A DNA stretch of 64,000 bases from Escherichia phage Ecwhy_1, in the sequence record MH791411.1, one strand, 5' to 3'. The translations under genes and the position numbers were made by a program. Of this stretch, positions 1 through 13,610 are shown in pieces. Every line of letters starts with the position of its first letter. Position 1 is the first letter of the stretch. A model generated the notes under the pieces. The model saw only the letters and a list, made by a program, of their open reading frames with translations. It was not told the DNA's origin and ran no database searches.

Positions 1-53
1 AGTACTACGTTGTCGTATACGTGTGCATTGATAGTGATTTCGATAGTGTTCAT
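1..53 (-). CDS. hypothetical protein, N-terminal part only (gene runs off window start)
   Basis: ATG at 53 with AGGAG SD upstream; reads MNTIEITINAHVYDNVV; PeSL-like cassette upstream. Confidence 0.4.
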   Translation of the reverse strand, partial: MNTIEITINAHVYDNVV

Positions 54-140
54 GGTGTATCTCCTGGACTTGAGGGGAAACCATTTCCCCCTCTCGATAT
101 AAAACATTATACGTTAATCTAACTACAATGCAAGTACTTT
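54..140 (-). promoter_or_regulatory. PeSL-like cassette: early promoter + stem-loop + SD
   Basis: minus strand TTGCAT/TTGACA -35, TATAAT -10, then GGGGGAAATGGTTTCCCC hairpin just upstream of ATG. Confidence 0.6.
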
Positions 141-332
141 TTAAATTTTATTTCCGATATAGTCCGGCATGTTCTTTTCAGTCATACGCTTTGCTAATGT
201 CTGCATATGGCTTATAGCGTTCAAGGTGTCTTCCTCCAGGGATGAATCGAGATAATCAGGATCATTCTTCACCTTGCAATGATTATGATAGCGTAGTACT
301 GCCAGTACTTTTTTAACTTCTTCTACTGTCAT
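141..332 (-). CDS. hypothetical protein (63 aa)
   Basis: ORF track; ATG overlaps stop of upstream gene (ATGA coupling). Confidence 0.6.
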   Translation of the reverse strand: MTVEEVKKVLAVLRYHNHCKVKNDPDYLDSSLEEDTLNAISHMQTLAKRMTEKNMPDYIGNKI

Positions 333-601
333 AATAAGTACCCCACTTCGTTAGCTTTCAGGTTAGTATCAATCATCAGTGGATTTTTGTAGTTCACAAA
401 ACGAGTAGTTTTCTCGATAGCGAATCCCATATAATCCAGCTTACTAACAGTACATTCATTCTTAAAAACTTCTTTCGCTGCATCGATGGCTGATTGCATG
501 GATAACCGACCATCTAAATTAATGTTTCCAAATGATCCACCAGCAGAAGTAGGATTACCGTTCATATCTTTAATGATCATAGTAGCGGAGTAGCTGGACA
601 T
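329..601 (-). CDS. hypothetical protein (90 aa)
   Basis: ORF track; ATG preceded by AAAGGAAAC SD and PeSL-like cassette. Confidence 0.65.
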   Translation of the reverse strand: MSSYSATMIIKDMNGNPTSAGGSFGNINLDGRLSMQSAIDAAKEVFKNECTVSKLDYMGFAIEKTTRFVNYKNPLMIDTNLKANEVGYLL

Positions 602-690
602 AATTTTGTTTCCTTTTATTGGTGTGGGGAGAACTATTCTCCCCTTGATGTAAACTATTATACAGTACTAAAATACTTTGTCAAATACTT
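602..690 (-). promoter_or_regulatory. PeSL-like cassette
   Basis: TTGACA-17-TATAAT then GGGGAGAATAGTTCTCCCC hairpin (minus strand). Confidence 0.65.
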
Positions 691-1098
691 TTATTCGCCC
701 ATATAGATTAGATTATCATCGCCTACATAGGGATCGCAAACGTTGATTTCTTCACAGTACTTCGTGAATACATCGCCATAGTGACCTAAACCACGATCCC
801 AAAAACCAGTTCCGTGACCTTCGCGGGTAAGGAACAGATCATGACCAGCTTGCTCATAACCGTAATCAATAAACATACCGCGAACTACTTCCAGATCATT
901 ACCGTGTTTCTCAATGAAGCGAGAACATGCAATCACCGCCGCTTGACGTGCTTCATCAGATAACTCATAATCTTCCAGGTAATCGCCGTTATCATTATGT
1001 ACAGTACTGAATTGCATAGCTTCAATGTAAGCTACAACCATTGCAGCATGATTTTTATCGTTAGTGATGTTCCGAGCGAGATTAGTAGTAGTAGACAT
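691..1098 (-). CDS. hypothetical protein (135 aa)
   Basis: ORF track; ATG start; PeSL-like cassette upstream. Confidence 0.65.
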   Translation of the reverse strand: MSTTTNLARNITNDKNHAAMVVAYIEAMQFSTVHNDNGDYLEDYELSDEARQAAVIACSRFIEKHGNDLEVVRGMFIDYGYEQAGHDLFLTREGHGTGFWDRGLGHYGDVFTKYCEEINVCDPYVGDDNLIYMGE

Positions 1099-1181
1099 GA
1101 TTTTATTCCTTATTGTATTGGGGAGAACTATTCTCCCCTTGATGTAAACTATTATACAGTACTGATATACTTTGTCAATAC
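1099..1181 (-). promoter_or_regulatory. PeSL-like cassette
   Basis: TTGACA-17-TATAAT + GGGGAGAA..TTCTCCCC hairpin. Confidence 0.65.
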
Positions 1182-1403
1182 TTAATTACGTTTAAAATGA
1201 TATGTGCCTTTATCATCCTGTACGCCCCATACTGATTTACCATCAACACCAGTGAAGCCGGATTGTAATTCAATATGGAAACCATTATTATCAACTACAA
1301 AAACTTTTTTATTTTCATCCCGATAACATTGATATTCTGAATCAACATTAAAGGCCGCATCATTCAGACGATTGGAAGCGTAAATGCAAGTCATTGTAGT
1401 CAT
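1182..1403 (-). CDS. hypothetical protein (73 aa)
   Basis: track ORF trimmed: first 11 codons are read-through of the hairpin; start MTTMTC after SD. Confidence 0.55.
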   Translation of the reverse strand: MTTMTCIYASNRLNDAAFNVDSEYQCYRDENKKVFVVDNNGFHIELQSGFTGVDGKSVWGVQDDKGTYHFKRN

Positions 1404-1500
1404 GATTTTATTCCTTAATATACCAGGGAGAACCATTCCCCCTCTCGATATAAAACATTATACTTGATTCTAAGTACAATGCAAGTACTTTTTTAAAAAT
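1404..1500 (-). promoter_or_regulatory. PeSL-like cassette
   Basis: TTGCAT-N17-TATAAT + GGGGGAATGGTTCTCCC hairpin. Confidence 0.6.
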
Positions 1501-1504
1501 AGTT

Positions 1505-1627
1505 TTCAGTACTGAATACTTATATAATAGATACACTTCCGCACCCTATGGGTCAGTGAGTTATCTCTCAATGGATATATAATAGCAAAGGGACTGACCG
1601 GAGTCAATCCCTTTTTTTAATCTTTTT
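1505..1627. repeat. conserved ~120-bp intergenic element, copy 1
   Basis: shares AGATACACTnnnGCACCCTRTGGG box and GGGACTGACCGGAGTCAATCCC hairpin + T7 run with copies at 4785 and 8785. Confidence 0.6.
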
Positions 1628-2212
1628 TTATCGTGTTACCTTACTTGCTGCCACATCACGCTTTTTATAGTACTGATTCCAGATATTGCTGGTTAAACCG
1701 TAATCAAGTACTTTAATAAGTCCATTACGATCCTGGCCGATATTCTGTTTTCTGATATCTCTTATCGTTAGTGTTGATAATGTATCATCAACGTGTTGTA
1801 GTGCATCAGCAAAGCGGTGCTGGCGTTCGATTGCATTACGTTTAATATTGTACTTTAATTCATTGCACGCGTTTACGTGCTTCACACTGCCTTTGCTTGC
1901 AGTACTCAACCGATCCATAACGATAAACATATTATCAGGATCGCATAAATGCATATGCACCTTTGCAAAGTACTGTTTCAATTGAGGGCGGTCATAGTCT
2001 AAAAAATTCCATACCTTACATTCAGTTTCATTTTGTTCTACACCCGCATCACAATTCGCGACCTTAATCACTAACCGATCATTTAAAGCGAAAACTATAC
2101 GGGAAGAACCAGCACCGATGATCTCCAGGCCAGCTAACCGACAAGCTGAAAGGATCTCTTTGTTGGTTTCCATTTCTGACAGTGTACGGATGAATTTAGT
2201 ATAATTACGCAT
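1628..2212 (-). CDS. protein kinase-like protein (194 aa)
   Basis: track ORF starts at TTG inside promoter; ATG (MRNYTKF) follows AAGGAG; IGAGSSRIVF..VIKVA and RDIRKQN..VLDYG resemble kinase G-loop/Lys/catalytic loop/DFG. Confidence 0.5.
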   Translation of the reverse strand: MRNYTKFIRTLSEMETNKEILSACRLAGLEIIGAGSSRIVFALNDRLVIKVANCDAGVEQNETECKVWNFLDYDRPQLKQYFAKVHMHLCDPDNMFIVMDRLSTASKGSVKHVNACNELKYNIKRNAIERQHRFADALQHVDDTLSTLTIRDIRKQNIGQDRNGLIKVLDYGLTSNIWNQYYKKRDVAASKVTR

Positions 2213-2243
2213 TGCATGTTCTCCTTGAGTTAATGAAACTATA

Positions 2244-2486
2244 TTACAGTACTTTACTATCAATGGCAACTACTTTTTTAACATTAACGGCGTGGATCAC
2301 TTCCTTCGTGTTTTTAGTACTGAATACTTTCGCCGCTCCTTGTTCGACCGTGATACGATAGCGACCATTAACATCAACCATATTAATAAAGTCCGGCGTG
2401 CTGAATGGTGTTGTTTTACATTTGAGTACTGTTAACAGTTCCACCAGCGATGTAGTTTCTTTGATACGTTTTTCTAAAGTAATCAT
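2244..2486 (-). CDS. hypothetical protein (80 aa)
   Basis: track ORF trimmed to MITLEKR; upstream 19 codons are promoter read-through. Confidence 0.5.
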   Translation of the reverse strand: MITLEKRIKETTSLVELLTVLKCKTTPFSTPDFINMVDVNGRYRITVEQGAAKVFSTKNTKEVIHAVNVKKVVAIDSKVL

Positions 2487-2543
2487 TTTGTTTCCCCCGT
2501 GTTGGTATGTACATATAGTACTAAAACATTTGAGTACTGTCAA

Positions 2544-2762
2544 TTAGATAATATTATATTTCTTAAAATAAAATGCGTCCTGTGTTGGTTGATACTCGAT
2601 ACCGTTACCGTTATTGACTTCAACTAATAAACCTTTGTCAATTAGTTTTTTAATAGTACGATACCCTTGTTGAAAATTGGTAAAATGTGAATCATTACGA
2701 AAGGTATAACCGTGCTTAACTGCTTCATCAATAGTTTTCTTTTCGATTTTAGATAATTTCAT
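2544..2762 (-). CDS. hypothetical protein (72 aa)
   Basis: track ORF trimmed to MKLSKIEK; promoter-leader duplicated from the 2244 gene. Confidence 0.5.
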   Translation of the reverse strand: MKLSKIEKKTIDEAVKHGYTFRNDSHFTNFQQGYRTIKKLIDKGLLVEVNNGNGIEYQPTQDAFYFKKYNII

Positions 2763-2815
2763 TTTGTTTCTCCCGTGTTGGTATGTGTACATAGTACTAA
2801 AACAATTGAGTACTG

Positions 2816-3070
2816 TCAACGTGATATTAGTTTTATTTTCTTATTGTATTGTTGATGCTCATAAAGGTTTATCTTTCCTGTGTTCTCGATTACTATCCTG
2901 TTGTTAGTGTCCACGTCGATTACACGCAGTTTCCCGTTGCTTAACTTCCTAGGTAATAGGTTACCATTAATAAACTCATTAGCAAGCTGTACGGCCTTTG
3001 TGATGATTCTCTGAGGTGCTTTATAGTGTACCCGTAAGATGTTATCTTTATATAGTTGAACCTTAATCAT
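2816..3070 (-). CDS. hypothetical protein (84 aa)
   Basis: ORF track; ATG after AGGACAAACAAA. Confidence 0.55.
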   Translation of the reverse strand: MIKVQLYKDNILRVHYKAPQRIITKAVQLANEFINGNLLPRKLSNGKLRVIDVDTNNRIVIENTGKINLYEHQQYNKKIKLISR

Positions 3071-3084
3071 TTTGTTTGTCCTAT

Positions 3085-3115
3085 AAAAAAGGCGGGAACT
3101 GATCCCGCCGTGTTG
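3085..3115 (-). terminator. rho-independent terminator candidate
   Basis: GGCGGGATCAGTTCCCGCC hairpin followed by TTTTTT on minus strand after stop of 3132 gene. Confidence 0.6.
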
Positions 3116-3131
3116 TTAGTACTGCAAGTTA

Positions 3132-3527
3132 TTAGATAACCTGGCGGCGTTTACTGTATACTGTTACACGATTACCCTTACGATCATGTCGGATCTCTTT
3201 CTGGTTGCGAATCAGTTCACTTGGACGCTTAAGGTTTGCCAGGTGATCCGCGTGAGTCCATGCGGTGTGGTTTACCTGTACTTTGATATCAGAATCAGCG
3301 ATAAACTCATCTTGTGCGTCAAGTATTGCCGCCAGCATATCCGCTCGTTTTAGTTCTGCTGCTGTCAGTACTGGCTCAGGTGAATTCACAATATCAGAGA
3401 TTTCTTTGAACTGTACGGCCCAGCGTTGACCTTTCGTTGCATCTTTGCCCATGTCTTTAAATGCTGCTCCTTCCTCGCGTGCAACAATACGGGCAGCTTC
3501 ACGGGTAGCGTAGAATTTAGTAATCAT
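3132..3527 (-). CDS. hypothetical protein; paralog of 16542-16808
   Basis: shared KYFATREQARIAAR..GATFKDMG..DRKGNRVTVY; start set at MITKF after AGGA. Confidence 0.6.
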   Translation of the reverse strand: MITKFYATREAARIVAREEGAAFKDMGKDATKGQRWAVQFKEISDIVNSPEPVLTAAELKRADMLAAILDAQDEFIADSDIKVQVNHTAWTHADHLANLKRPSELIRNQKEIRHDRKGNRVTVYSKRRQVI

Positions 3528-3622
3528 GGTATACATCCTATTAGTTGAGTTAGTACTACAAGTTAGAGTCTATTATAAAGTACTATCTGGGCAATGTCAA
3601 ATAGTACTTTAAATGGATTCTA

Positions 3623-3946
3623 TTACATGTCTTTCTTACGTTTTACATCGTGGTAGCGAACTGTTATTTCTTTGTTGATCTCTTCCTCGATGCGATGAAT
3701 AACTTTTTCTTTCGGGTTGAAACCTATAACGGTTTCTTTAATGATCTCCAAGCCCGTGTATTCGCCTTGTGTACCGTAACCGTATGTAAAGGTTTCGTGT
3801 CCCAGGTCTTCCCAGCGGTCGCCAATTAACGCAGACACGTAGCAAGAGTGGTAAGTATTGCCGTGTGAATCAGTCCACCGATTAACGTTAATGTCAAAGG
3901 AGGTTACAATTTTCAATTCTACTTTCTGGGCAAGGATCATAGCCAT
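3623..3946 (-). CDS. hypothetical protein; paralog of 10466-10789
   Basis: shared RWTDSxGNTYHSCxVS..TYGY..VKRKKD; ATG start. Confidence 0.65.
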   Translation of the reverse strand: MAMILAQKVELKIVTSFDINVNRWTDSHGNTYHSCYVSALIGDRWEDLGHETFTYGYGTQGEYTGLEIIKETVIGFNPKEKVIHRIEEEINKEITVRYHDVKRKKDM

Positions 3947-4033
3947 TTTTATTTCTCTCTCTTTGTTAGGAGGGGAACCATTCCCCTCGCTTGATGTAAA
4001 CTATTATACAGTACTAAGATACTTTGTCAATAC
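3947..4033 (-). promoter_or_regulatory. PeSL-like cassette
   Basis: TTGACA-17-TATAAT + GGGGAATGGTTCCCC hairpin. Confidence 0.65.
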
Positions 4034-4216
4034 TTATTTTTTGGAAAGTTTACGCATTAATTCTACGCTTTCTTGTGAACGTTTTGCTACCTGGCAAGCT
4101 GTATGGGCAGTAAACATTTTTGTATAGTCTGACGCTTTGCCACCGAACCGAGCGGCACGTTCACGGGCACTTGGAACTAATACTATTTCTTTATTACAGA
4201 TAGTGCACTTAGCCAT
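4034..4216 (-). CDS. hypothetical small Cys-containing protein (60 aa)
   Basis: trimmed to MAKCTICNK; CxxC near N-terminus. Confidence 0.55.
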   Translation of the reverse strand: MAKCTICNKEIVLVPSARERAARFGGKASDYTKMFTAHTACQVAKRSQESVELMRKLSKK

Positions 4217-4304
4217 TTTTATTTCTCTCTCTTTGTTAGGAGGGGAACCGTTTCCCCTCACTTGATGTAAACTATTATACAGTACTAAGATACTTTGTCA
4301 ATAC
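4217..4304 (-). promoter_or_regulatory. PeSL-like cassette
   Basis: TTGACA-17-TATAAT + GGGGAAACGGTTCCCC hairpin. Confidence 0.65.
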
Positions 4305-4580
4305 TTAAGTATTGTAAATGTCGTGAATAGTGATAAAGTTTTTACGACCGTAAACATGTAAATCAGTATCAATGTAGTGCTTATCAAGTACATCCTCGAC
4401 GCTTAAAGACGTGTCGTGAATATCTTCATAAAATTGTGGATCAACAATCGTGCTTAAGTCATCTGGCGTTAACTTATCGTTAAGGCATTGAACCGCCTGG
4501 ATATCTGCTTCACGTTTCCATTGTTCCAGATTAGTAGTCAGTACTTGCTCGATTTCGTTAGCTGTAAGTAAAGTCCGCAT
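4305..4580 (-). CDS. hypothetical protein (91 aa)
   Basis: ORF track; ATG after AAGGAAAC. Confidence 0.6.
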   Translation of the reverse strand: MRTLLTANEIEQVLTTNLEQWKREADIQAVQCLNDKLTPDDLSTIVDPQFYEDIHDTSLSVEDVLDKHYIDTDLHVYGRKNFITIHDIYNT

Positions 4581-4600
4581 TTTAATGTTTCCTTATCAGT

Positions 4601-4740
4601 GGTTGATGTAAGTATTATACTCGTTTACTTTCTATTGTCAAACTATTTTATCAGGGGAGTTTTTCGTATGTCTTACTCCTGGACTACTTAACGGGGTTAC
4701 TTATTTCGTTCCCCGTCCTGATGTAAAACATTATACTTGA
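4601..4740 (-). repeat. duplicated structured leader, copy A (copy B at 15826-15960)
   Basis: ~140 bp near-identical; two hairpins (ACGGGG..CCCCGT; CAGGAGT..ACTCCCCTG) between tandem promoters. Confidence 0.6.
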
Positions 4741-4784
4741 TTCTAAGTACAATGCAAGTACTTTTTTAAAAATAGTTTTCAGTA

Positions 4785-4895
4785 CTAGCCACCAGCAAAC
4801 AATAGATACATTTATGCACCCTGTGGGCTAATTTGTTTCTATGCGTATATAATAGCAAAGGGACTGACCGGAGTCAATCCCTTTTTCAAATATTT
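4785..4895. repeat. conserved ~120-bp intergenic element, copy 2
   Basis: GCACCCTGTGGGC box + GGGACTGACCGGAGTCAATCCC hairpin + T-run. Confidence 0.6.
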
Positions 4896-5045
4896 TTAAA
4901 CTTCTTTCGGGTTGCGATATGTGATAGCGTTCGGGTACATTTGTTTAATGTTATTCCATGCCTGGTTAACATTATAACCACTTGATCGAATCAGTTGGTT
5001 ATTACCGACACCTTGAAACACTACTTCAAATAAGAATTCTTTCAT
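4896..5045 (-). CDS. hypothetical small protein (49 aa; below track cutoff)
   Basis: ATG overlaps stop of 5042 gene (ATGA); reads MKEFLFEVVFQGVGNNQLIR. Confidence 0.4.
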   Translation of the reverse strand: MKEFLFEVVFQGVGNNQLIRSSGYNVNQAWNNIKQMYPNAITYRNPKEV

Positions 5046-5215
5046 GCTTTCACCTCTCGATCTGCTTTGCCTTTACGCCAGGCCGTTGCTAATTGTTCGC
5101 GTTGCCATAAGTCGAGTGATACGTAAAGTTTTGCATTATCACCCTTCGGATATTCGCCAGTAGTACCAATCCGATAAAACAGATCTTTCAGTACTGTTAA
5201 TTCTACCTGGACCAT
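5042..5215 (-). CDS. hypothetical protein (57 aa)
   Basis: trimmed to MVQVELT after hairpin read-through. Confidence 0.5.
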   Translation of the reverse strand: MVQVELTVLKDLFYRIGTTGEYPKGDNAKLYVSLDLWQREQLATAWRKGKADREVKA

Positions 5216-5302
5216 TATACTTTCCTCTTTGTTAGGAGGGGAACTATTCCCCTTCCGATATAAAACATTATACACTTTATTCAGTACTGTGCAAGTACTT
5301 TT
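5216..5302 (-). promoter_or_regulatory. PeSL-like cassette
   Basis: promoter + GGGGAATAGTTCCCC hairpin. Confidence 0.6.
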
Positions 5303-5515
5303 TTAATCTTTCAGCCAATGATCCTGAATGAATTTTTCACCGGAACCTTGCTGCATTGATTGTAACAGACGTTCGCGATGAGCGGCGGCGAATTGCTCAG
5401 TACTATGCGTTACACCTGGTTGATATCTGGATTCACCATTTGGGGCGATGTATTGTACATCCCACGGTTTTTCGTTAGTATCAGACCATTTACGAACGAT
5501 TAGTTGACCTTGCAT
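5303..5515 (-). CDS. hypothetical protein (70 aa)
   Basis: ORF track; ATG start. Confidence 0.6.
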   Translation of the reverse strand: MQGQLIVRKWSDTNEKPWDVQYIAPNGESRYQPGVTHSTEQFAAAHRERLLQSMQQGSGEKFIQDHWLKD

Positions 5516-5598
5516 TTTTCTTTCCTCTTAGTGGGGAGAATCATTTCTCCCCTTCATGTAAACTATTATACAGTACTGGATTGCATTGTCAATAGTTT
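5516..5598 (-). promoter_or_regulatory. PeSL-like cassette
   Basis: TTGACA-17-TATAAT + GGGGAGAAATGATTCTCCCC hairpin. Confidence 0.65.
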
Positions 5599-5922
5599 TT
5601 ATTCACCTTGTTTGAATATAGTTTTCTCCATTGATTCCATGATTGCAACCAATACAGCATGGATCTCACTTAACGCGGCATCACTAAAAGCATTAATGAA
5701 TAGGCAATCATTCTCGCGAATATTTTTAATGTACTTATCAGCAGTGGTTGCGAATTCATTCAACGGCAGATCAAATGCTTTATCCCATAATGGATGGCGT
5801 AACTGTAACAGTACTGGATTATCACGATCACCAGGGGAAAACGTACCAGTGATGAAACATACGCCCGGAATACTTTCGAACTGGCAACGGACTTCCTTTG
5901 TGATAGTAGTATGAATGTACAT
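5599..5922 (-). CDS. hypothetical protein (107 aa)
   Basis: ORF track; GAGGA SD. Confidence 0.6.
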   Translation of the reverse strand: MYIHTTITKEVRCQFESIPGVCFITGTFSPGDRDNPVLLQLRHPLWDKAFDLPLNEFATTADKYIKNIRENDCLFINAFSDAALSEIHAVLVAIMESMEKTIFKQGE

Positions 5923-5949
5923 TTATTGTTATCCTCTATTAAATTAATA

Positions 5950-6138
5950 TTACAGTTTATGAATTAATTCTTTATCTAAGCGATAGCGTACATTATTAAT
6001 GGTAACAGCATTATTTTTAATGCTACGCTGTACGGGTCCACCAGCAATAACAAACGTTGCTTTATTGCCCCGAACAATGATAGCACTTCCAGGATTACCG
6101 AAATCATCTTGTACTAAAATACTTGATAAGTTTTCCAT
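5950..6138 (-). CDS. hypothetical protein (62 aa)
   Basis: ORF track. Confidence 0.55.
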   Translation of the reverse strand: MENLSSILVQDDFGNPGSAIIVRGNKATFVIAGGPVQRSIKNNAVTINNVRYRLDKELIHKL

Positions 6139-6216
6139 TTTTATTTCCTCTTAGTAGGGGAAGATGTTTCCCCTTGATGCAAGTACTATAACAGTACTGA
6201 AAACTAAATGCAAGTA
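6139..6216 (-). promoter_or_regulatory. PeSL-like cassette
   Basis: promoter + GGGGAAACATCTTCCCC hairpin. Confidence 0.6.
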
Positions 6217-6573
6217 CTATGATAAAATCATGATAGGATATTCACTATCTATCAATACCTCGAATCCGAAACCTTCGTACCATTCTTTAAGATTAAAGGC
6301 GTTATCTTCTCCCGTATCGCATTCTAAGATGATACAATCTGAATCATCGGCGGCATCAATAAAGGCATTCATTAATTCGTTACCTTCACCATTGCCCCGA
6401 CTATCAGGATCAACATAAAGAGAATCAATAAACGCTACACGGTCATAATCAAGATCCGGTGCAATGATTCCACGTTTAACAAACCAGTACTGCAATTGTG
6501 CTACTTTGCCCTGTACTTGATAGCCAGTGATCTCGCCATTGTCAGTAGTACGCGTGATATGTTGTATTCCCAT
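6217..6573 (-). CDS. hypothetical protein (118 aa)
   Basis: ORF track; TTGACA-17-TATAAT promoter and GAGGAT SD upstream. Confidence 0.6.
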   Translation of the reverse strand: MGIQHITRTTDNGEITGYQVQGKVAQLQYWFVKRGIIAPDLDYDRVAFIDSLYVDPDSRGNGEGNELMNAFIDAADDSDCIILECDTGEDNAFNLKEWYEGFGFEVLIDSEYPIMILS

Positions 6574-6636
6574 GATTACTATCCTCAGTTAAGATATAAA
6601 ACATTATACACTATCTTTCAGTACTGTCAATACTTT

Positions 6637-6894
6637 TTATCTCATAGATCTATGCCAACAATTACGCGGATCTCTTTTAAAAGTACTATCATGATCCTCC
6701 TGGCAAGTAATACAATACATGCACCCTATAACGGCCTGGCGTCGATTCTCAGGGATTTTATCGCCGCAGTCGAGGCAATGTACAAGTGATTCTCTTTGTG
6801 CGTTAATTTGCTTTCTAGCGTGGTTAACGGCGGCCTGAATCACTGCATGAATCTCGTCTTGTTCGGCCCCGTCTTTCGCGTATCCTACTGCCAT
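6637..6894 (-). CDS. TraR/DksA-family C4 zinc-finger protein (85 aa)
   Basis: CLDCGDKIPENRRQAVIGCMYCITC = CxxC-x17-CxxC with conserved IPxxRR. Confidence 0.65.
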   Translation of the reverse strand: MAVGYAKDGAEQDEIHAVIQAAVNHARKQINAQRESLVHCLDCGDKIPENRRQAVIGCMYCITCQEDHDSTFKRDPRNCWHRSMR

Positions 6895-7056
6895 TATTTT
6901 AACCTCATTATAAAAATACTATAGTACTGTAATGCTACAATAATACTACTAGTGTTTATCTTATTCAAACCATATGATACTACATATCCACCAGCATTAC
7001 CACGAATAGTAACGCCTTTGTACTGTCTATATAAATTCAACTGCGTATATTGCCTT

Positions 7057-7129
7057 TGATCAAGAATTGATCAGAATTATACGCCTTATGCTAAATTGAT
7101 CCAGTACTTTTTTGATCATTTATTGATCG
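7057..7129. promoter_or_regulatory. cluster of five TGATC(A) / GATC sites
   Basis: five GATC within ~73 bp in an intergenic region. Confidence 0.5.
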
Positions 7130-7223
7130 ATATTATATAGTTACATTTGTGCACCCTATGGGTTAGTGACGTTCTCGTCTTGATGTAAGTATTATGCCAG
7201 TACTGGAGGATATTGTCAATAGA

Positions 7224-7421
7224 TTATTTTAATTTTTTTCTGTCATTGATTAATGCTTTCAGTACTATACTAATAACTTGCAATGATTCATCAATGACAA
7301 TGAAATTATTCTCTTTCATTAGATGATAGTTACCATTGATTGTATATTCTAACGAGTACTGTTTACGTTTAATTTTTGATAATGTTTCTATTTGTTTTTG
7401 TACTGATTTCATGCTAATCAT
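7224..7421 (-). CDS. hypothetical protein (65 aa)
   Basis: track ORF starts at TTG; ATG (MISMKS) two codons downstream. Confidence 0.5.
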   Translation of the reverse strand: MISMKSVQKQIETLSKIKRKQYSLEYTINGNYHLMKENNFIVIDESLQVISIVLKALINDRKKLK

Positions 7422-7489
7422 TGTCAAACGTCCTGTAACGCATTCTAACGAGATAAACGGTTTAGTACTGGCATTGTATAGGGTAAATG

Positions 7490-7527
7490 ATTAAAGCCCA
7501 CCAGCGTTAACCAGTGGGCTATAATAT
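7490..7527 (-). terminator. rho-independent terminator candidate
   Basis: AGCCCACTGG..CTGGTGGGCT hairpin + T-run (minus). Confidence 0.5.
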
Positions 7528-8023
7528 TACATCTTGCGGATAATCTTAACAGTATCTTTCACCGATTTACCGTTTTGCTGACATTGCTCGATCATCGCGT
7601 ATTGTTCTGCGGTCAGATCCTCGCCAGTTTTTGCCAGTACTGCGTCGATGAATGAATCCAGTGCGATCATTTTATTTCTCTCTTAGGTTAAGTTAACTAC
7701 TGTTTATAAAACTTATTATACAGTACTATCAATCTATGTCAATAGTACTGGTAATATATTTTAGCGGTAGTCGTCGTATGCTTTATTCACCTGGCGAATA
7801 TAACTTTCAAAGGCTTCGTCTACCGTTTCATACTCCCGAACATAATCACCATATGAAACTACATACATACCTTTTTGATCTTCAAACGTCATGATGATAG
7901 AATCCAGACCAACGATTTCAGTTTTTGCGATGATAGCCATTTTTTAATTCCTTAGTAGTGTAGTTGATAAAAGTTATTATGTCAGTACTATCAAACTATG
8001 TCAATAGTACTGTGATAATATTT

Positions 8024-8236
8024 TTAGTTAATGATAGTCAGTGTAAAATTGTAATCACCGCAGCGATATAGCACGTTATTCCCAAATGTCCCAACTAATC
8101 GCACATCACACAAAACGCCGGTTTTTTCTTTTACTTCCTTGATACTTGTAACTCCTGTAATATCTTTATTAAAGTATTCATGATCTGAAAATAAAACTTG
8201 TTTTGCATTTTTTAATTTCGACCGGATATTAGCCAT
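8024..8236 (-). CDS. hypothetical protein (70 aa)
   Basis: ORF track; PeSL-like cassette upstream. Confidence 0.6.
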   Translation of the reverse strand: MANIRSKLKNAKQVLFSDHEYFNKDITGVTSIKEVKEKTGVLCDVRLVGTFGNNVLYRCGDYNFTLTIIN

Positions 8237-8332
8237 TTTGTTTTCTCTCTCTGTTAGTGGGGAGAAGTTTTTCTCCCCTTGATGTAAACTATTATACAGT
8301 ACTATAATCTATTGTCAAACTATTTTTTTATA
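8237..8332 (-). promoter_or_regulatory. PeSL-like cassette
   Basis: TTGACA-17-TATAAT + GGGGAGAAAAACTTCTCCCC hairpin. Confidence 0.65.
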
Positions 8333-8674
8333 TTATTCGAAATCTTCTGGACCGGACTGATAATCATCTTCACCGTATGCACTTTCTAACCGCTCGCCAG
8401 TGTGATCATCAGTTAGTGAGTCATCCTCATAGTTCACGTCTACGCCAGTGATGTAAAACTGGCTATCGTCTGGATCATTGAAATTAATTTTCTGTATGTT
8501 TACAATAACTGTATTGATGCCCAGGACACCGCCATCAGCCGTTACAAAGTACTGATAGTTTTCGCAACCGCCTGAATTGAAACCGTAATTAATTTCGGCC
8601 CGACCATCATTTAAACGCAGTGCCTGGGCGATGATTTCGTTTTCAAAGTTAGATTGAGCAATTGAGATAGTCAT
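8333..8674 (-). CDS. hypothetical protein (113 aa)
   Basis: trimmed to MTISIAQ after hairpin read-through. Confidence 0.55.
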   Translation of the reverse strand: MTISIAQSNFENEIIAQALRLNDGRAEINYGFNSGGCENYQYFVTADGGVLGINTVIVNIQKINFNDPDDSQFYITGVDVNYEDDSLTDDHTGERLESAYGEDDYQSGPEDFE

Positions 8675-8760
8675 GATTTGTTTCCTTATTACCAGGGGAA
8701 ACCGTTTCCCCCTCTCGATGTAAAACATTATACGCTTATTGAGATAGTTTGCAAGTACTT
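8675..8760 (-). promoter_or_regulatory. PeSL-like cassette
   Basis: promoter + GGGGGAAACGGTTTCCCC hairpin. Confidence 0.6.
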
Positions 8761-8784
8761 TCTACAAATACTTTTAAAATAGTT

Positions 8785-8905
8785 TTCAGTACTCAATACT
8801 CATATAATAGATACACTTATGCACCCTGTGGGCTAGTGAGCTATCTCTCAATGAATATATAATAGCAAAATGGCTGACCGGAGTCAACCACTTTTTTCAT
8901 TTATT
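8785..8905. repeat. conserved ~120-bp intergenic element, copy 3
   Basis: GCACCCTGTGGGC box + TGGCTGACCGGAGTCAACCA hairpin + T6. Confidence 0.6.
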
Positions 8906-9126
8906 TTTAGCTTTTAGAATCGCCGCCTTTCGCGTCATGCCTTGCTTGATGTATTCTTGTACTTTCGCTTTACGTGCATTCGCTTTATTTGCTTTCGTAA
9001 ATGCCGAACAACTTTTATAGTTTAAACCTGTTGGATTCATTTAAATCACCATAAAGAATAGATAGGTTACTAACAACGCCGCGATCAATGCACCGACCAG
9101 GGCCGAACTATAGTAAGCTAATGTTT

Positions 9127-9279
9127 TCATTTTTTAGCCTGAAAGTAATGTTTAATTTGAGCGGCGGTCAGTGCACAATTACGCAGGAAGTTTTCTGTAT
9201 AACTGCGGCGAGTACTGAAAGAGAATTGACCTTTGCCGTTACCGATAGTAACATCAAACCGAGCGTTGTATTGTTTCAT
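9127..9279 (-). CDS. hypothetical protein (50 aa)
   Basis: trimmed to MKQYNARFD. Confidence 0.45.
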   Translation of the reverse strand: MKQYNARFDVTIGNGKGQFSFSTRRSYTENFLRNCALTAAQIKHYFQAKK

Positions 9280-9363
9280 TTTGATTCTCCTGTTATTGGG
9301 GAGAATCATTTCTCCCCTTCATGTAAAACATTATACAGTACTAAAAACTAATTGCAAGTACTA
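9280..9363 (-). promoter_or_regulatory. PeSL-like cassette
   Basis: promoter + GGGGAGAAATGATTCTCCCC hairpin. Confidence 0.6.
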
Positions 9364-9507
9364 TTTTTTAGATTTACGCAAACTTTCTACCATCTCAGGA
9401 GTAAGGCCCGGCGGGTAGGAAACTACTTCATCAACGAAACGTAAAGGGAATACCCCAGCGAAAGGTGAACGTGCTTTCTTAGTATTACTCTTTTTTGATG
9501 CTTTCAT

Positions 9508-9576
9508 TTCATATTCCTTAATTAGTGGGGAGAATCATTTCTCCCCTTCATGTAAAACATTATACGCGTTTAAAAA
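9508..9576 (-). promoter_or_regulatory. PeSL-like cassette
   Basis: same hairpin as 9280 cassette; precedes an unannotated ~48-aa ORF (MKASKKSN..) at ~9364-9507. Confidence 0.5.
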
Positions 9577-9786
9577 CTAATTGCAAGTACTATTTGAAAG
9601 TAAATGCTCATACGCTGCATTAACTACGTTTTCAATAACCGACTGTACAGAAAGATCCCCCACGTCCTGGCTATAGTAGAAATCGCTTACAGTGGTGTCA
9701 TCGTATGCAAATACTTTACCAGGTACTGCATCAATCACATACATATTAACCTTTAAGATGTCGATCTTATCCTGTACAGTAAGCAT
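9577..9786 (-). CDS. hypothetical protein (69 aa)
   Basis: ORF track. Confidence 0.55.
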   Translation of the reverse strand: MLTVQDKIDILKVNMYVIDAVPGKVFAYDDTTVSDFYYSQDVGDLSVQSVIENVVNAAYEHLLSNSTCN

Positions 9787-9791
9787 ATTAA

Positions 9792-10064
9792 TTAACCTTT
9801 TAAGTACTGGCTTAAGTAGTCTTGTTGATCTTCGGTGATTGCAGCCATCTTCCCTAGTACTGGATTAATGATATAATCCCCTGTAACGTCCTGTAACGCA
9901 TTCTCAGGCGGTTTAACGGCTGGGGTAGCCATAGCCATCGCCTGGACTTGTTCGACGCTATAACGCTCATATAGGCGGCATTCTTCCGGTGTTAACATAG
10001 CATCAATGCGTTTCATTGGTTTAATGATGCTTTCAACTTCATTCAGTACTTGATTAACGTTCAT
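9792..10064 (-). CDS. hypothetical protein (90 aa)
   Basis: ORF track; ATG. Confidence 0.6.
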   Translation of the reverse strand: MNVNQVLNEVESIIKPMKRIDAMLTPEECRLYERYSVEQVQAMAMATPAVKPPENALQDVTGDYIINPVLGKMAAITEDQQDYLSQYLKG

Positions 10065-10115
10065 GGTATAATCCCCAATATAAGCGGCCTGAATCGACCG
10101 CTAACGATGTTTTGA

Positions 10116-10385
10116 TTAATAGGTGTATGGTTGACGTTCAAACAATGATTGCACGTTGTACGCCCCACTAATGGGCTTTGCTGGTAAATCAATTTTATAT
10201 TGCTCACGCTTAAAGATAATAAAACGGCAATTGTTTTTAACATCAAAATTGATTGAACGTTCCAGTAGTTTACCATCGTGCACAAATACAAGATAACCGC
10301 TCGCTACTTGTTTTGTAGTACTGGTTGCAACCATAGACCGCCGAACATGTGTACCTGCGTCGATTAAAGTACTGATATTTTTCAT
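10116..10385 (-). CDS. hypothetical protein (89 aa)
   Basis: ORF track; AAGAGGAA SD; preferred over overlapping 10061-10291. Confidence 0.55.
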   Translation of the reverse strand: MKNISTLIDAGTHVRRSMVATSTTKQVASGYLVFVHDGKLLERSINFDVKNNCRFIIFKREQYKIDLPAKPISGAYNVQSLFERQPYTY

Positions 10386-10465
10386 TATACGTTCCTCTTA
10401 AGTTAATTTAATTTCTTTCCCCTATGCAGACACTATATCAAAGTATCTGCATAAAGTAAAGCTAA

Positions 10466-10789
10466 TTAAAGATCTTTTTTGCGTTTAACATTCTGTACAG
10501 TACAATGCAACGGGATATTAAGATCATTGCACAAACGAGTAAGGGAGGTTTCATCAGTATTAAGCCCGTCTACTGATTCCTTTAATAGATCTAACGCCGT
10601 TTGTTGATATGCATCTTCATAGCCATAAGTAAATGATTCAACCGCCAGATCATTCAAACCGTTATCCAGTTCGACGCTTACATGACAAGAATGATAAGTA
10701 TTGCCATATGAATCAGTCCAACGTTTACCGTCAACATTGATTGCACGGATTGCAGCCAGGGAAACGGTGTTAATGATAGTTTTAGCCAT
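10466..10789 (-). CDS. hypothetical protein; paralog of 3623-3946
   Basis: shared RWTDSYGNTYHSC..TYGY..VKRKKD. Confidence 0.65.
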   Translation of the reverse strand: MAKTIINTVSLAAIRAINVDGKRWTDSYGNTYHSCHVSVELDNGLNDLAVESFTYGYEDAYQQTALDLLKESVDGLNTDETSLTRLCNDLNIPLHCTVQNVKRKKDL

Positions 10790-10878
10790 TTTTGTATTCC
10801 TTAAATTAATATGTTGTCTTGATAAAATCTATTATGCCAGTACTATCAAACTATGTCAATAGTACTGTGATAATATTT

Positions 10879-11091
10879 TTACTTACTTTCTTTCGCTGCT
10901 TTGTGCGTTGCCACTGCCATAACCACATCAGCACGAACAAAGTTTTTAACCGTGTCGCTGTAATAATTGATCGCTTCATCAATATCTGCGAACATCCGAT
11001 ACATACCGCACCACGATACTTTATAACCTGCTTTCACTTCTTCCAGCTTAACCAGTGATTTGTTAACTTTGATTTTAGTAATGATAGCCAT
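10879..11091 (-). CDS. hypothetical protein (70 aa)
   Basis: ORF track; upstream promoter cassette identical to the one at 10790-10878. Confidence 0.6.
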   Translation of the reverse strand: MAIITKIKVNKSLVKLEEVKAGYKVSWCGMYRMFADIDEAINYYSDTVKNFVRADVVMAVATHKAAKESK

Positions 11092-11319
11092 TTTATTTTC
11101 CTCAGTTGTCTTGATAAAATCTATTATGCCAGTACTATCAAACTATGTCAATAGCACTGTGATAATATTTTTACTTACTTTTTGCTTTCTTGATTGCTTC
11201 CACCTGGTCGGCCCATTCTTTACCCCATACTTGTAAATTATAATGGTACTGGCAAAGAGCAACGCCCCGCTTTAAACCCGTAATAGATTTCTGACCACAT
11301 TGACAAGTTTTCATTTTAG

Positions 11320-11400
11320 TTTCCTTGTAGTGGGGAGAACCATTTTCTCCCCTTGATGTAATGTATTATACTTTATTCGATTTACTTTGCAAGTACTTTT
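11320..11400 (-). promoter_or_regulatory. PeSL-like cassette
   Basis: promoter + GGGGAGAAAATGGTTCTCCCC hairpin; precedes unannotated ~47-aa Cys-containing ORF (MKTCQCGQK..) at ~11176-11319. Confidence 0.5.
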
Positions 11401-11628
11401 TTAATTTAATTCATCAAGGCAAAGGATACGCTCAACGCCCAAATCAGTTAAACTAATCGACGGCACTTGATAGGTTTCAATGTATGCTACACTTGCCCAC
11501 TGACCGAACTCATTAACGGCCCAGGTATTCATTGCATTTTGCAATTCCGCACCTTCCTTGTTGGTAATGACTGCAACTACTTGTTCGTTGCCAGTAGTAC
11601 CAGATACGCGAGTAATGATAATAGCCAT
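11401..11628 (-). CDS. hypothetical protein (75 aa)
   Basis: trimmed to MAIIITRV. Confidence 0.55.
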   Translation of the reverse strand: MAIIITRVSGTTGNEQVVAVITNKEGAELQNAMNTWAVNEFGQWASVAYIETYQVPSISLTDLGVERILCLDELN

Positions 11629-11720
11629 TGTTTTGATTCCTTTGATTTGGAAGGAGAACCGTTTCCCCCTCTCGATGTAAAACATTATACGCTAATCTCT
11701 TAATCGTGCAAGTACTTTTT
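11629..11720 (-). promoter_or_regulatory. PeSL-like cassette
   Basis: promoter + GGGGGAAACGGTTCTCC hairpin. Confidence 0.6.
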
Positions 11721-11869
11721 ATTACTTTTTGCAAAATACTTTAAACGCTCTCAATCGCGTTCTTACAGCCTTAACGCCACCAGCTAGGGCAATGCATCAG
11801 ATAATCAGTTTAATGCGTTAGAATCGTTTCTAGGCGGTGCTGGTGGCATGGTAAACGATAAACACAAAA

Positions 11870-11913
11870 AAGCCCACCGTTTAAGGTGGGCTAGTGATTC
11901 AGTACTTTAATTG
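11870..11913 (-). terminator. rho-independent terminator
   Basis: GCCCACC-TTAAAC-GGTGGGC hairpin + TTTTTT on minus strand after stop. Confidence 0.7.
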
Positions 11914-12396
11914 TTATGCTTCAACTTTGCGATGAGATTCGATCCATTCCTCGCGAGTCATACCGCTGGCGTTAATCGCGTCCAGTACTACCGCAATGCA
12001 GTTACCACGCACCGGAATCAGATATTCTTCCCCGTTGTCCAGTACTACCGCTACGCGTTCCTGAATCCATTTTTTGGCTTTTACTTCTGGCTTGTCTTCC
12101 CCATACTTAACCGCCAGGGCTTTTTGTGCCATCTCTGTAACTACTTCCAGATCCAATCCAACTACTGCCGCCTGAATACTTTCGATTGTTGCTTGTAGTT
12201 CTGCTTCACGGGCCGCCTTTGCCGCTTCAATTTCTGCCGCTTTATTTGCTTGTAGTTCTTTCGCAGTACTGTACGCGATGTTAAAATTATTGCGTACCGC
12301 TTTCATGGTATCGTTATCCAGTTCAGCCAGGATCTCAGCCGCGACGTTAGTTTCATTTGCTACCAGTGCTTTGATGAATGATTTTACATTAGCCAT
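11914..12396 (-). CDS. hypothetical protein (160 aa), Ala/Glu-rich
   Basis: track ORF starts at TTG; ATG (MANVKSF) follows GAGGA SD. Confidence 0.6.
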   Translation of the reverse strand: MANVKSFIKALVANETNVAAEILAELDNDTMKAVRNNFNIAYSTAKELQANKAAEIEAAKAAREAELQATIESIQAAVVGLDLEVVTEMAQKALAVKYGEDKPEVKAKKWIQERVAVVLDNGEEYLIPVRGNCIAVVLDAINASGMTREEWIESHRKVEA

Positions 12397-12860: not shown

Positions 12861-12881
12861 GATGTTACCCCGTAGTATCTA

Positions 12882-13580: not shown

Positions 13581-13610
13581 TTTTAATAAAAAGTATTTGA
13601 AAAATAGTTG

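Follow-up and report, generated by a model that had tools for sequence, protein, structure and literature searches.

A repeated terminator and promoter cassette predicted to launch a conserved folded RNA in the early region of jumbo phages

An intergenic element recurring at 1505-1627, 4785-4895 and 8785-8905 of the 64-kb window (the whole stretch of DNA analysed) raises the questions of which strand it is read from and what its product may do. The source of the window is an E. coli jumbo phage resembling Asteriusvirus (PBECO4/121Q/G17-type), whose early region (1-18.3 kb) is dense in promoters and carries its genes on the minus strand. The three copies had been described before, with a degenerate fourth at 16095-16160, as a candidate small RNA or bidirectional control module ending in a plus-strand terminator. 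All three are present as stated and are far from chance, the 24-nt box AGATACAYTNNNGCACCCTRTGGG occurring six times at ≤3 mismatches against 0.00 expected (100 shuffles). The family proved larger, as a covariance model found ten members in the window, one of them partial and nine full (five on the minus strand and four on the plus strand), all within the first 18.3 kb. The supposedly degenerate member is a complete copy in which an ordinary promoter replaces the hairpin promoter, and six window copies of the module lack the GGGACTGACCGGAGTCAATCCC hairpin entirely. The sites are as follows.

1587-1614, minus strand: copy 1, terminator hairpin of the upstream kinase-like gene (1628-2212), with the -35 TTGACT in its 5' arm; terminator-like site on the minus strand only
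1579-1607, minus strand: copy 1, sigma-70-type promoter TTGACT-17-TGcTATTAT with extended -10 (promoter scan, 10/12 matches, TG present)
1523-1573, minus strand: copy 1, box RNA module (covariance model, 64.4 bits, E = 9e-14)
1457-1484, minus strand: copy 1, second, ordinary early promoter TTGCAT-16-TATAAT (read from the sequence; repeat families D1 and D3)
4857-4884, minus strand: copy 2, terminator hairpin with the -35 inside (site scans and folding)
4849-4877, minus strand: copy 2, promoter TTGACT-17-TATTAT (promoter scans)
4798-4843, minus strand: copy 2, box RNA module, a variant with P1 short or missing, AUAGAAACAAAUUAG (covariance model, 36.9 bits, E = 9e-7)
8867-8894, minus strand: copy 3, terminator hairpin with the -35 inside and two G.U pairs on the minus strand (site scan and folding)
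8859-8887, minus strand: copy 3, promoter TTGACT-17-TATTAT (promoter scan)
8803-8853, minus strand: copy 3, box RNA module (covariance model, 57.4 bits)
7133-7219, minus strand: additional copy, promoter TTGACA-17-CATAAT (7191-7219) and box (7133-7182), upstream of a DksA-like zinc-finger gene (promoter scan and covariance model)
16110-16193, minus strand: the copy formerly called degenerate, promoter TTGACT-17-CATAAT (16165-16193) and complete box (16110-16159) (promoter scan and covariance model)
16021-16100, plus strand: copy converging on the preceding one, promoter TTGACA-17-TATAAT (16021-16049; 12/12 matches) and box (16061-16100; covariance model)
13611-13756, plus strand: free-standing small-RNA unit between two minus-strand genes and antisense, promoter 13611-13639, box 13648-13697, bidirectional terminator 13719-13741 with U-tract (scans and covariance model)
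17954-18039, plus strand: class 2 copy (H2 3' strand CCGUCC), promoter 17954-17981, box 17989-18039 (covariance model weak, 16.5 bits, E = 0.13)
18170-18255, plus strand: class 2 copy, promoter TTGCTT-16-TATAAT, box 18206-18255 (covariance model weak, 14.6 bits, E = 0.4)
18055-18074, minus strand: partial decayed copy, H2 only (covariance model, 15.2 bits, E = 0.28)

The repeated element is a minus-strand terminator and promoter cassette that is predicted to launch a conserved folded RNA of ~50 nt, opposite to the strand first proposed. In all copies, 21-30 nt separate the box CCCAYAGGGUGC from a sigma-70-type -10 upstream of it on the same strand. Matches to CC[CT]N3-4GGG[TC]G numbered 109 in the window plus nine related loci, and 99 of them had a same-strand promoter (score of at least 9/12) with its -10 ending 21-30 nt upstream; once overlaps were removed, 80 box copies remained. 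Each of the 80 members examined had a sigma-70-type promoter at a constant spacing from the box. Relative to the predicted transcript start, the element always sets in at +3 to +5. The helix H2 described below is 89% paired on the promoter strand against 47% on the opposite strand, with 226 G.U pairs against 11 A.C mismatches. The original prediction stands as to a repeated intergenic control module, most likely encoding a small structured RNA, and falls as to its strand and transcript model.

That model, a ~90-nt plus-strand small RNA running from a plus-strand TATAAT to the hairpin and T-run and antisense to the neighbours, is hardly credible. There are indeed 5-7 T after the hairpin on the plus strand, TATATAAT lies at a suitable distance in copies 1 and 3, and the hairpin could block stray antisense transcription. 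However, no plus-strand promoter-like site passed the scan at copies 1 and 2, each scanned singly, and none near copy 3 was among the sites listed by the wider scan. The shared TATAAT segment beside the hairpin arises as the reverse complement of TATTAT, the minus-strand -10, while the other plus-strand TATAAT (1523-1528) is absent from copy 2 and from the proposed place in relatives. The six hairpin-less window copies also speak against such a transcript.

The GGGACTGACCGGAGTCAATCCC hairpin is mainly a minus-strand terminator of the upstream gene with the -35 in its 5' arm. The TTGACT had been recognised there before, and the scan found the promoter TTGACT-17-TATTAT to which it belongs. In copies 1, 2 and 3 the hairpin folds at -19.5, -19.5 and -16.9 kcal/mol on the minus strand against -13.2, -13.2 and -6.4 kcal/mol on the plus strand, where it is weaker because G.U pairs turn into C.A mismatches, and on the plus strand that of copy 3 is no better than shuffles (z-score -0.9). 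In phage G17 the ortholog of the copy 1 hairpin carries a terminator annotation on the gene strand. The hairpin is under selection as a minus-strand RNA structure. Of the plus-strand terminator claimed earlier, the hairpin and its T-run are present; the T-run is also the A-rich upstream tract of the minus-strand promoter, and termination in the antisense direction is a secondary role at most. The hairpin forms a separate family of 12 members with box-less occurrences at 42.9-57.5 kb (D10/D16). As hairpin promoters occur there without the box and box promoters occur without the hairpin, the box is a unit in its own right, under separate selection.

A conserved CA marks the start of the predicted RNA, which folds into a 5' hairpin (P1), a second hairpin that pairs CCC with GGG (P2) and a third that is rich in G.U (H2; GGGUGCR/YGUAUCU), the GGG being common to H2 and P2. 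In copy 1 the inferred start is the A of CAT, followed by P1 UGAG/CUCA, CCC-AUA-GGG and H2 GGGUGCG/UGUAUCU. A comparison of structure and covariation across the copies and related phages, which had been proposed as a check, supported this fold on the promoter strand, as 91.7% of the structure as a whole is paired, compared with 76.8% in shuffles (none of 500 as high) and 29-73% in slid controls. In counts from an alignment fitted to the model, and hence biased towards that structure, P1 covaries: all four pairs vary on both sides with 94.6% of cells paired, 32 distinct stems occur, one pair is CG in 26 copies, AU in 17, GC in 13, UA in 1 and never unpaired, and the four column pairs highest in mutual information coincide with the four P1 pairs. 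The P1 stem is small or absent in ~10 copies, and its loops are purine-rich (e.g. GAGAAA, GCGAAA). P2 is 99.5% paired with a loop of 3 or 4 nt; one compensatory CCU/AGG change was counted and a second was seen by eye in a row misaligned by the model. H2 is ~90% paired and changes from G.U to G-C and from U-A to U.G, its 5' strand being invariant, so that its support is compatibility, not true covariation; its shuffle test in Python was not significant (observed value reached in 126 of 2000 shuffles).

These patterns bear on whether the box is instead a DNA-level site, with CCCAYAGGGTGC...TGTATCTAT, at +25 to +50 of some early promoters, serving a DNA-binding protein as operator or roadblock. 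The short palindrome ACCCATAGGGT, the fixed promoter-to-box distance, other over-represented DNA words in these phages (AGTACT, 280 against ~22 expected) and the Fur-like and LexA-like boxes adjoining some copies in relatives would suit such a site. We nevertheless find it quite improbable, as the CCC-GGG half-site spacing is 3 or 4 nt with a free loop sequence, the 3' part varies only by transitions that keep G.U or U.G pairs on one strand, and the P1 covariation is of the RNA type.

The hairpin-promoter part has a counterpart in the PeSLs (promoter-early stem-loops), composite terminator/early-promoter motifs that T4-like phages carry in hyperplastic regions (Arbiol 2010, PMC2839356; Comeau 2014, PMC4122927). 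Both combine a stem-loop terminator with a near-consensus sigma-70 early promoter, occur as many repeats between small ORFan genes of a plastic early region, and exist in near-identical copies that suggest inter-copy recombination. In the jumbo-phage cassette, however, the -35 sits within the hairpin arm and the promoter launches a conserved ~52-nt structured RNA, which PeSLs lack. The element might be a generic PeSL-type cassette that recombination spreads and keeps uniform within a hyperplastic early region; it would then lack a specific RNA function, and its 5' hairpins would merely protect transcripts from 5'-end-dependent decay. Copies 1 and 2 are 90-95% identical over ~200 bp, second promoter included (repeat families D1/D14), ordinary early mRNAs of the phage likewise start with a 5' hairpin (D3/D9), and the flanking small ORFans and indels between relatives agree with this explanation. 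It is unlikely all the same, as recombination leaves unexplained an invariant 12-nt core and a two-state helix kept across genera beside a freely covarying P1, as well as the free-standing copies with their own terminators; box promoters and hairpin promoters moreover each occur without the other.

The module takes three forms, namely a 5' leader before a second promoter and unrelated early genes, a free-standing promoter-box-terminator unit, and a convergent pair. About one third of the family copies are free-standing units and the remainder are 5' leaders, and the genes 3' of the leaders are unrelated to one another. In copy 1 the second promoter is followed by a 5'-UTR hairpin and then by gene 1182-1403. 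The genes flanking box modules are small ORFans, and indels distinguish relatives. Copies antisense to genes carry a GC-rich hairpin and U-tract at +67 to +74 with no ORF 3' of the box, and from their sequence the free-standing units are predicted to yield RNAs of ~100 nt. In the window such a unit (13646-13756) sits with a minus-strand gene on either side. The free-standing units resemble lambda oop RNA in being short units from host-type promoters, ending at a bidirectional terminator that also serves a convergent gene; oop, however, is single-copy and antisense to cII, whereas the box copies are paralogues sharing a conserved structured core.

These arrangements also bear on a cis-acting put- or nut-like modifier, in which the nascent folded 5' RNA would stay on its polymerase, alone or with a phage or host factor, and the polymerase would resist pausing and termination, so that box-promoter transcripts pass the early intergenic terminators. 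The fixed place of the module at the transcript 5' end (+3 to +5) would fit an RNA polymerase-directed element equally well, and the hairpin-promoter would stop incoming transcription and restart it with box-bearing RNA. The purine-rich P1 loops resemble boxB loops, a point in its favour, and the lambda nut site (boxA and boxB) is likewise a promoter-proximal RNA hairpin with a purine-rich loop in early transcripts. However, boxA-like sequence gave 24 matches against 26 expected and none at the elements, the invariant CCCAYAGGGUGC has no nut counterpart, and the host phages of the module are not lambdoid. HK022 putL starts at A3 of the PL transcript and is made of stem-loops (PMC9378689). The HK022 put RNAs (putL/putR), which are cis-acting antiterminators, are similar to the module as structured RNAs starting a few nucleotides into an early sigma-70 transcript, with stem-loops, a -10-like element in the transcribed region and no obvious tie to an adjacent protein gene. 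In 34 of 73 copies a -10-like hexamer comes right after H2 at one constant offset (0-13 at other offsets); it resembles the putL -10-like pause element, and GG-N8-TG inside H2 would match the consensus elemental pause. Yet the module has ~52 nt and helices of 3-7 bp against ~70 nt and long stems in put RNA, with no apparent sequence or structure homology, and is multi-copy (9-10 per window). Free-standing copies run straight into strong terminators with only a gene in antisense beyond, which would defeat the purpose of an antiterminator, and nearly every early gene has its own promoter, so the need for read-through is not obvious. We rate such a modifier as rather doubtful.

Related phages hold more than 120 box-module copies, the covariance model matching 84 times in the first ten sources and another 41 times in additional loci. 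Element identity is 71-81% across jumbo phages of Escherichia, Klebsiella, Salmonella, Pectobacterium, Cronobacter, Erwinia, Serratia and Yersinia, and the phage genera concerned have only ~33-38% of proteins in common (PMC5259590). The element lies within the annotated terminal repeats of vB_Ec-M-J and CBB. There was no match in 185,579 bacterial species genomes and none to the element in Rfam, and the only viral matches were three uncultivated contigs with lengths of 109, 360 and 366 kb, plus six with lengths of 345-378 kb. For the related jumbo phage PA5oct, abundant ncRNAs are reported to arise from the terminal repeat (PMC7318152), an origin shared with the box-module region, but the box was not found in its ncRNA001. 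The box RNA was found only as an early-region, terminal-repeat feature of RaK2-like jumbo phages, outside the catalogued RNA families.

Our tentative preference, a little short of an even chance, is that the module acts as RNA, abundant and immediate-early, which binds a conserved putative partner through its two-state core. The stable UNCG-loop hairpin would terminate the mRNA of the upstream gene, its 5' arm doubling as the -35 (TTGACT) and part of its U-tract as the -10 (TATTAT) of a new sigma-70-type promoter, and this part may operate like the PeSLs. Transcription would initiate at the conserved CA (the inferred start site), and the first ~52 nt would be the conserved structured RNA, comprising in order P1 with a purine/A-rich loop, a YURR linker, the invariant CCC-AYA-GGG-UGC and a near-invariant CUAU after H2. 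In the two-state core, GGG has two alternative partners, CCC to form P2 and the downstream YGUAUCU to form H2. Strong host-type promoters would allow high-copy synthesis at DNA entry, ahead of any phage protein, and the RNA may work as a decoy or regulatory small RNA whose partner is conserved across Enterobacterales hosts or phages. The leader copies may be a source of the same RNA or may couple it to their own mRNAs. With a put-like RNA polymerase modifier as its main rival, our best guess is that the box RNA is a candidate partner-binding immediate-early RNA of these phages.

The three reported copies of the intergenic element (copies 1 to 3) exist as described, and their mutual alignment spans about 230 bp. 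The repeated element is real, but the original prediction of three copies and a degenerate fourth was incomplete, as a covariance model recovered nine full copies plus a fragment, all of them in 1-18.3 kb. Over the remaining 45 kb of the window the model gave zero hits. It was seeded with 12 family members of uniform length and also used for alignment, in place of a MAFFT alignment of all copies that misplaced the 5' hairpin P1. At the level of sequence, the 24-nt box occurs 6 times in the window at no more than 3 mismatches against 0.00 expected by chance, and the 12-nt core 11 times at no more than 2 mismatches against 2.9 expected.

Box copies and the free-standing unit in the window
1505-1627, minus strand: copy 1, box module at 1523-1573
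4785-4895, minus strand: copy 2, box module at 4798-4843
8785-8905, minus strand: copy 3, box module at 8803-8853
7139-7162, orientation as copies 1 to 3: further box copy
16116-16139, orientation as copies 1 to 3: further box copy
13668, reverse orientation to copies 1 to 3: further box copy
16071, reverse orientation: further box copy
18009, reverse orientation: further box copy
18226, reverse orientation: further box copy
13611-13756, plus strand: free-standing unit that contains the box copy listed at 13668, with promoter at 13611-13639, box at 13648-13697 and terminator at 13719-13741

The interval 1-18.3 kb carries small minus-strand genes. The best matches to the first 10 kb of the window were Asteriusvirus jumbo phages, namely fEgEco12 (98.4% identity) and G17, PBECO4, 121Q and others with genomes of 350-385 kb, and alignments to relatives were fragmented. 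The counterpart of this region is part of a long direct terminal repeat in the relatives vB_Ec-M-J and CBB; therefore we regard 1-18.3 kb as the early region, probably the first DNA to be expressed. A consensus scan of 1-18 kb returned 101 promoter-like sites against 63 expected, of which the strongest were mostly on the minus strand and included eleven perfect TTGACA-16/17-TATAAT sites. Apart from the box element, ordinary early mRNAs have a common leader at about 25 sites in 85-17700 (e.g. 1404-1450 and 9277-9330; repeat families D1-D3 and D9), in the order TATAAT-GTTTTACATC, GC-rich hairpin and RBS. The hairpin, GGGGAGAA-loop-TTCTCCCC, occurs in compensatory variants and is a predicted 5'-terminal stem-loop common to the early transcripts of the phage.

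The core, read as CCCAYAGGGTGC, was found downstream of a sigma-70-type promoter on its own strand in every copy. Across the window and nine related loci (253 kb), searched with a loose core pattern and a promoter score of at least 9/12, a same-strand promoter with its -10 ending 21-30 nt upstream was present at 99 of 109 core matches. Removal of overlaps retained 80 copies, all 80 with the promoter at a fixed distance. P1 starts at position +3 to +5 of the predicted transcript. A conserved CA is located 6-7 nt downstream of the -10, so that by standard promoter geometry the RNA is expected to begin there; the transcription start site and the RNA ends of the module are used here as we infer them. 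For copies 1 to 3 the promoter strand is the minus strand, opposite to the ~90-nt plus-strand small RNA that had been proposed to end at the hairpin and T-run. On the plus strand no promoter-like site for such an RNA was detected in 1380-1680 (copy 1) or 4650-4950 (copy 2), and the proposed plus-strand TATAAT is absent in copy 2. The idea of a small RNA is probably right, but it had been placed on the wrong strand and the architecture is different.

Comparison of the copies with one another and with related phages bears out a structured RNA on the promoter strand, where P1 covaries and pairing in the helix H2 is compatible. P1 has 3-5 bp, occurs with 32 distinct stem sequences and has a purine/A-rich loop usually of 6-7 nt. 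On the model alignment 4/4 of its pairs change on both sides with 94.6% of the cells paired, one pair being CG in 26, AU in 17, GC in 13, UA in 1 and unpaired in none, and the four top column pairs of a mutual-information scan are exactly the four P1 pairs. In about ten copies the stem is replaced by an A-rich single strand. As compared with lambda boxB and its GNRA-like purine loop, P1 has the loops GAGAAA, GCGAAA, AGAUAA and AGAACAA on stems that vary in length or are missing. The second hairpin, P2 (CCC-loop-GGG), is invariant and 99.5% paired with a loop of 3 or 4 nt; a single compensatory CCU/AGG was scored in a Yersinia phage, and another was seen by eye in CBB, in a row misaligned by the model.

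The helix H2, GGGUGCR-NNNN-YGUAUCU, is 90% paired, against 47% when read on the opposite strand, with G.U pairs outnumbering A.C mismatches 226 to 11. Its 3' strand varies only in ways that preserve pairing (U/C facing G, A/G facing U), and a second class of copies has CCGUCC as 3' strand. As the 5' strand is invariant, this amounts to compatibility and not covariation, and the shuffle test, which was not significant, is uninformative. Pairing over the whole structure amounts to 91.7%, as against 76.8% for shuffles (0/500 reach the observed value) and 29-73% when slid, on an alignment fitted to the model. P2 uses the same GGG as the three outer pairs of H2, by which the RNA would either have two states or stack P2 on the inner four pairs of H2. 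GGGUG and CCC never change, a constancy that may reflect the need for two pairing partners. A double-stranded DNA operator, in which the box would be conserved as a binding site and not as RNA, is unlikely because the P2 loop varies in length and because substitutions keep wobble pairing on one strand only.

Several other candidates were rejected. For a pseudoknot that would join the P1 loop (AGAUA) to the 3' UAUCU, complementarity is confined to the AGAUAA-loop subclass and there is no mutual-information covariation. A coding role of the box would involve only 3-codon ORFs (by eye), which are unconserved, and class-2 copies are without AUG/GUG in H2. Likeness to a hammerhead-like core, CRISPR I-E/I-F repeats, DnaA, CRP or ops sites was confined to variable positions of some copies, as compared by eye.

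In copies 1 to 3 the hairpin is mainly a terminator of the minus strand, joined to a promoter. The minus-strand folds of copies 1, 2 and 3 reach -19.5, -19.5 and -16.9 kcal/mol (z = -6.2 at -19.5 kcal/mol for GGGAUUGAC-UCCG-GUCAGUCCC), whereas those of the plus strand, on which the U.G pair becomes an internal C.A mismatch, reach -13.2, -13.2 and -6.4 kcal/mol, the last with a z-score of -0.9 that is no better than shuffles. A scan of copies 1 to 3 called the hairpin terminator-like on the minus strand only, and the orthologous hairpins of G17 were entered as gene-strand terminators by the authors of that genome. The T-run reported 3' of the hairpin on the plus strand is indeed there (5-7 T); it doubles as an A-tract upstream of the minus-strand -35, and the hairpin may act as a secondary terminator in the antisense direction. 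As the 5' arm of this terminator-like hairpin carries TTGACT, with TATTAT 17 nt on and TG before it, the same hairpin ends the upstream mRNA and supplies the -35 of the next promoter, which is a very compact design.

A box-less version of this hairpin-promoter occurs nine times at 42.9-57.5 kb (repeat families D10/D14/D16), and 6/9 full box copies of the window have ordinary promoters without the hairpin; thus the cassette consists of two separable parts. The nine hairpin-embedded -35 promoters of 42950-57546 (minus strand; GGGTTGACTTCGGTCAGCCC-TTTTTGC-TATAAT) are placed directly upstream of genes and are without box RNA. The cassette is similar to the PeSL composite terminator/promoter motifs in that the hairpin of copies 1 to 3 is terminator-like and overlaps TTGACT-17-TATTAT on the minus strand, and in that a 12-member hairpin family, flanked by ORFans, is repeated between small variable genes in a promoter-dense region. 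A purely generic PeSL-like cassette (PMC4122927) explains the element in part, as it accounts for the hairpin-promoter and for the near-identity of copies 1 and 2 but leaves the deep conservation of the box unexplained.

The copies occur in distinct contexts. Downstream of those in gene sense come a second promoter (+65 to +105) and then an ORF (+120 to +290), and the genes downstream of these leader copies are unrelated to each other. Gene-antisense copies, including those of relatives, run into a GC-rich hairpin and U-tract at +67 to +74 with no ORF thereafter. The free-standing unit at 13611-13756, with the minus-strand genes 13746-13997 and 13266-13502 as neighbours, has its own promoter, its own intrinsic terminator and no ORF, and its RNA is predicted to be about 105-110 nt; such promoter-box-terminator units are present in every genome. 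A convergent pair, 16021-16100 (plus) facing 16110-16193 (minus), has similar counterparts in G17, CBB, Klebsiella phages, Munch and fHe-Yen9-03.

Regulator-like sites were observed near some of these copies. Near-consensus Fur boxes (GAGAATGATAATCATTTAC, 16/19 positions; GATAATGATAATCATTTAC, 17/19) lie between convergent box promoters in loci of Klebsiella phages, a Salmonella phage and one uncultivated relative (L004 about 7500-7545, L005 about 485-530, L007 about 7425-7450 and 1035-1060, L002 about 1280-1300), and no Fur-like site with fewer than 5 mismatches was found in the window. In the related loci L002, L007 and L009 (e.g. L007 about 11960-11990, minus) several free-standing box copies are followed by TACTGTACAAATAAACAGGG, which conforms to the LexA-box rule CTGT-N8-ACAG; the single match to this rule in the window, at 54377, is unrelated to the elements. 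At 7040-7130 (minus), 3' of the box at 7133-7182, five TGATCAA/GATC motifs surround another TATAAT promoter, and Erwinia phage Hallingskeid has a comparable GATC cluster after its equivalent copy (L009 about 9085-9110). These clusters could be Dam/SeqA-related or a regulator site.

Besides, the palindrome AGTACT occurs 280 times in 1-64000 against about 22 expected (first-order Markov), most densely in 1-24000, and CAGTACTG 67 times in the window. It is found in promoter spacers (CCAGTACTGGCATAAT), just 5' of -35 elements (AAGTACTTGCA), 10-15 nt past many box modules and within terminator stems, and could be bound or modified by a phage factor. The ~2-kb stretch 17650-19630 is without long ORFs and contains two class-2 box copies and a decayed reverse copy, about 12 copies of the 8-bp unit TAGCCGTC (18421-18519) and repeats of ATGATTACAT (19240-19263 and 19469-19506). 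By comparison with vB_Ec-M-J and G17 it is probably near the genome terminus or a terminal-repeat boundary, and is a candidate region for packaging, an origin or the control of injection. The adjoining 19630-24237 (minus) holds about 25 dense, often overlapping ORFs of 59-78 aa and one of 219 aa, with internal duplications (D20 families); these ORFs seem to be without individual promoters, in contrast to the promoter-per-gene arrangement of 1-18 kb, the interval covered by the promoter scan. About 12 paralogous genes of ~1.2 kb (N-terminus MLPFVRM/MLPFARMVKYGN) stand in tandem at 24300-38600, each with its own TATAAT promoter, RBS and preceding GCCAGTACT..AGTACTGGC hairpin (families D4, D5, D12 and D17).

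The box is a new structured-RNA family confined to RaK2-like jumbo phages. The element was detected at 71-81% identity over about 90-120 nt in Klebsiella phages RaK2, K64-1 and Muenster, Salmonella phages Munch and 7t3, Pectobacterium CBB, Cronobacter GAP32, Serratia BF and Erwinia and Yersinia jumbo phages, and the covariance model gave 84 hits in the first ten sources, with a further 41 from additional loci. A 42-bit box+H2 pattern had no match in 185,579 bacterial and archaeal species (one genome each), and in IMG/VR its matches were confined to three uncultivated contigs of 109, 360 and 366 kb and another six of 345-378 kb. A stricter promoter-anchored pattern gave one contig there. No Rfam 15 family matched the whole window at gathering score, nothing was found at the boxes of positions 1-19000 at E up to 5, a tRNA/tmRNA scan found none, and the box is absent from ncRNA001 of the PA5oct terminal repeat. 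The genome papers examined make no mention of the RNA; that of CBB tabulates RpoD-like promoters and no such RNA. Our literature search on RaK2-like and Asteriusvirus phages returned neither an account of the motif nor a transcriptome for any of these phages carrying the element.

That the RNA is the functional product, and how it acts, we infer from these comparisons. We favour an abundant immediate-early RNA that would bind a conserved partner through its invariant core, because free-standing units recur in every genome, because the genes below leader copies have nothing in common, and because the core stays unchanged from host to host as the rest drifts. Its chief competitor is a put- or nut-like element that would act on its own transcribing polymerase. 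Like HK022 putL (PMC9378689), the module is a structured RNA with which an early sigma-70 transcript begins; past H2, 34/73 copies have a -10-like hexamer at a fixed offset, and the hairpin-promoter stops and then restarts transcription. However, free-standing copies run straight into terminators, the genes have abundant promoters of their own, and boxA is missing, the nut-type motif (YGCUCUUUA-like) having 24 matches in the window against 26 expected and none inside an element. Moreover, putL and putR form two long stem-loops of ~70 nt in a V shape (PMC9378689), whereas the box module has about 52 nt and helices of 3-7 bp, and on the architecture described there we saw no resemblance. Beyond the partner-binding RNA that we favour, it is conceivable, though we would not expect it, that the box represents a new class of immediate-early effector RNA, either reprogramming host RNA polymerase in a put-like, protein-independent manner or serving as a high-copy decoy against a conserved host factor or defence before phage proteins are made, with the invariant three-way segment CCC/GGG/UCU as a two-state switch either way.

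Annotators gain from this work a covariance model and a strand assignment for the element, and experimenters exact coordinates and mutations that separate RNA from DNA and cis from trans function. The RaK2-like jumbo phages (about 350 kb) are widely isolated, therapy candidates included, and their early programme is almost all 'hypothetical'; the structured RNA described here, conserved and multi-copy, probably belongs to the earliest products of that programme after DNA entry. If this RNA modifies RNA polymerase or disarms a host factor, it would count among the rare devices by which a virulent phage takes over its host through RNA alone.
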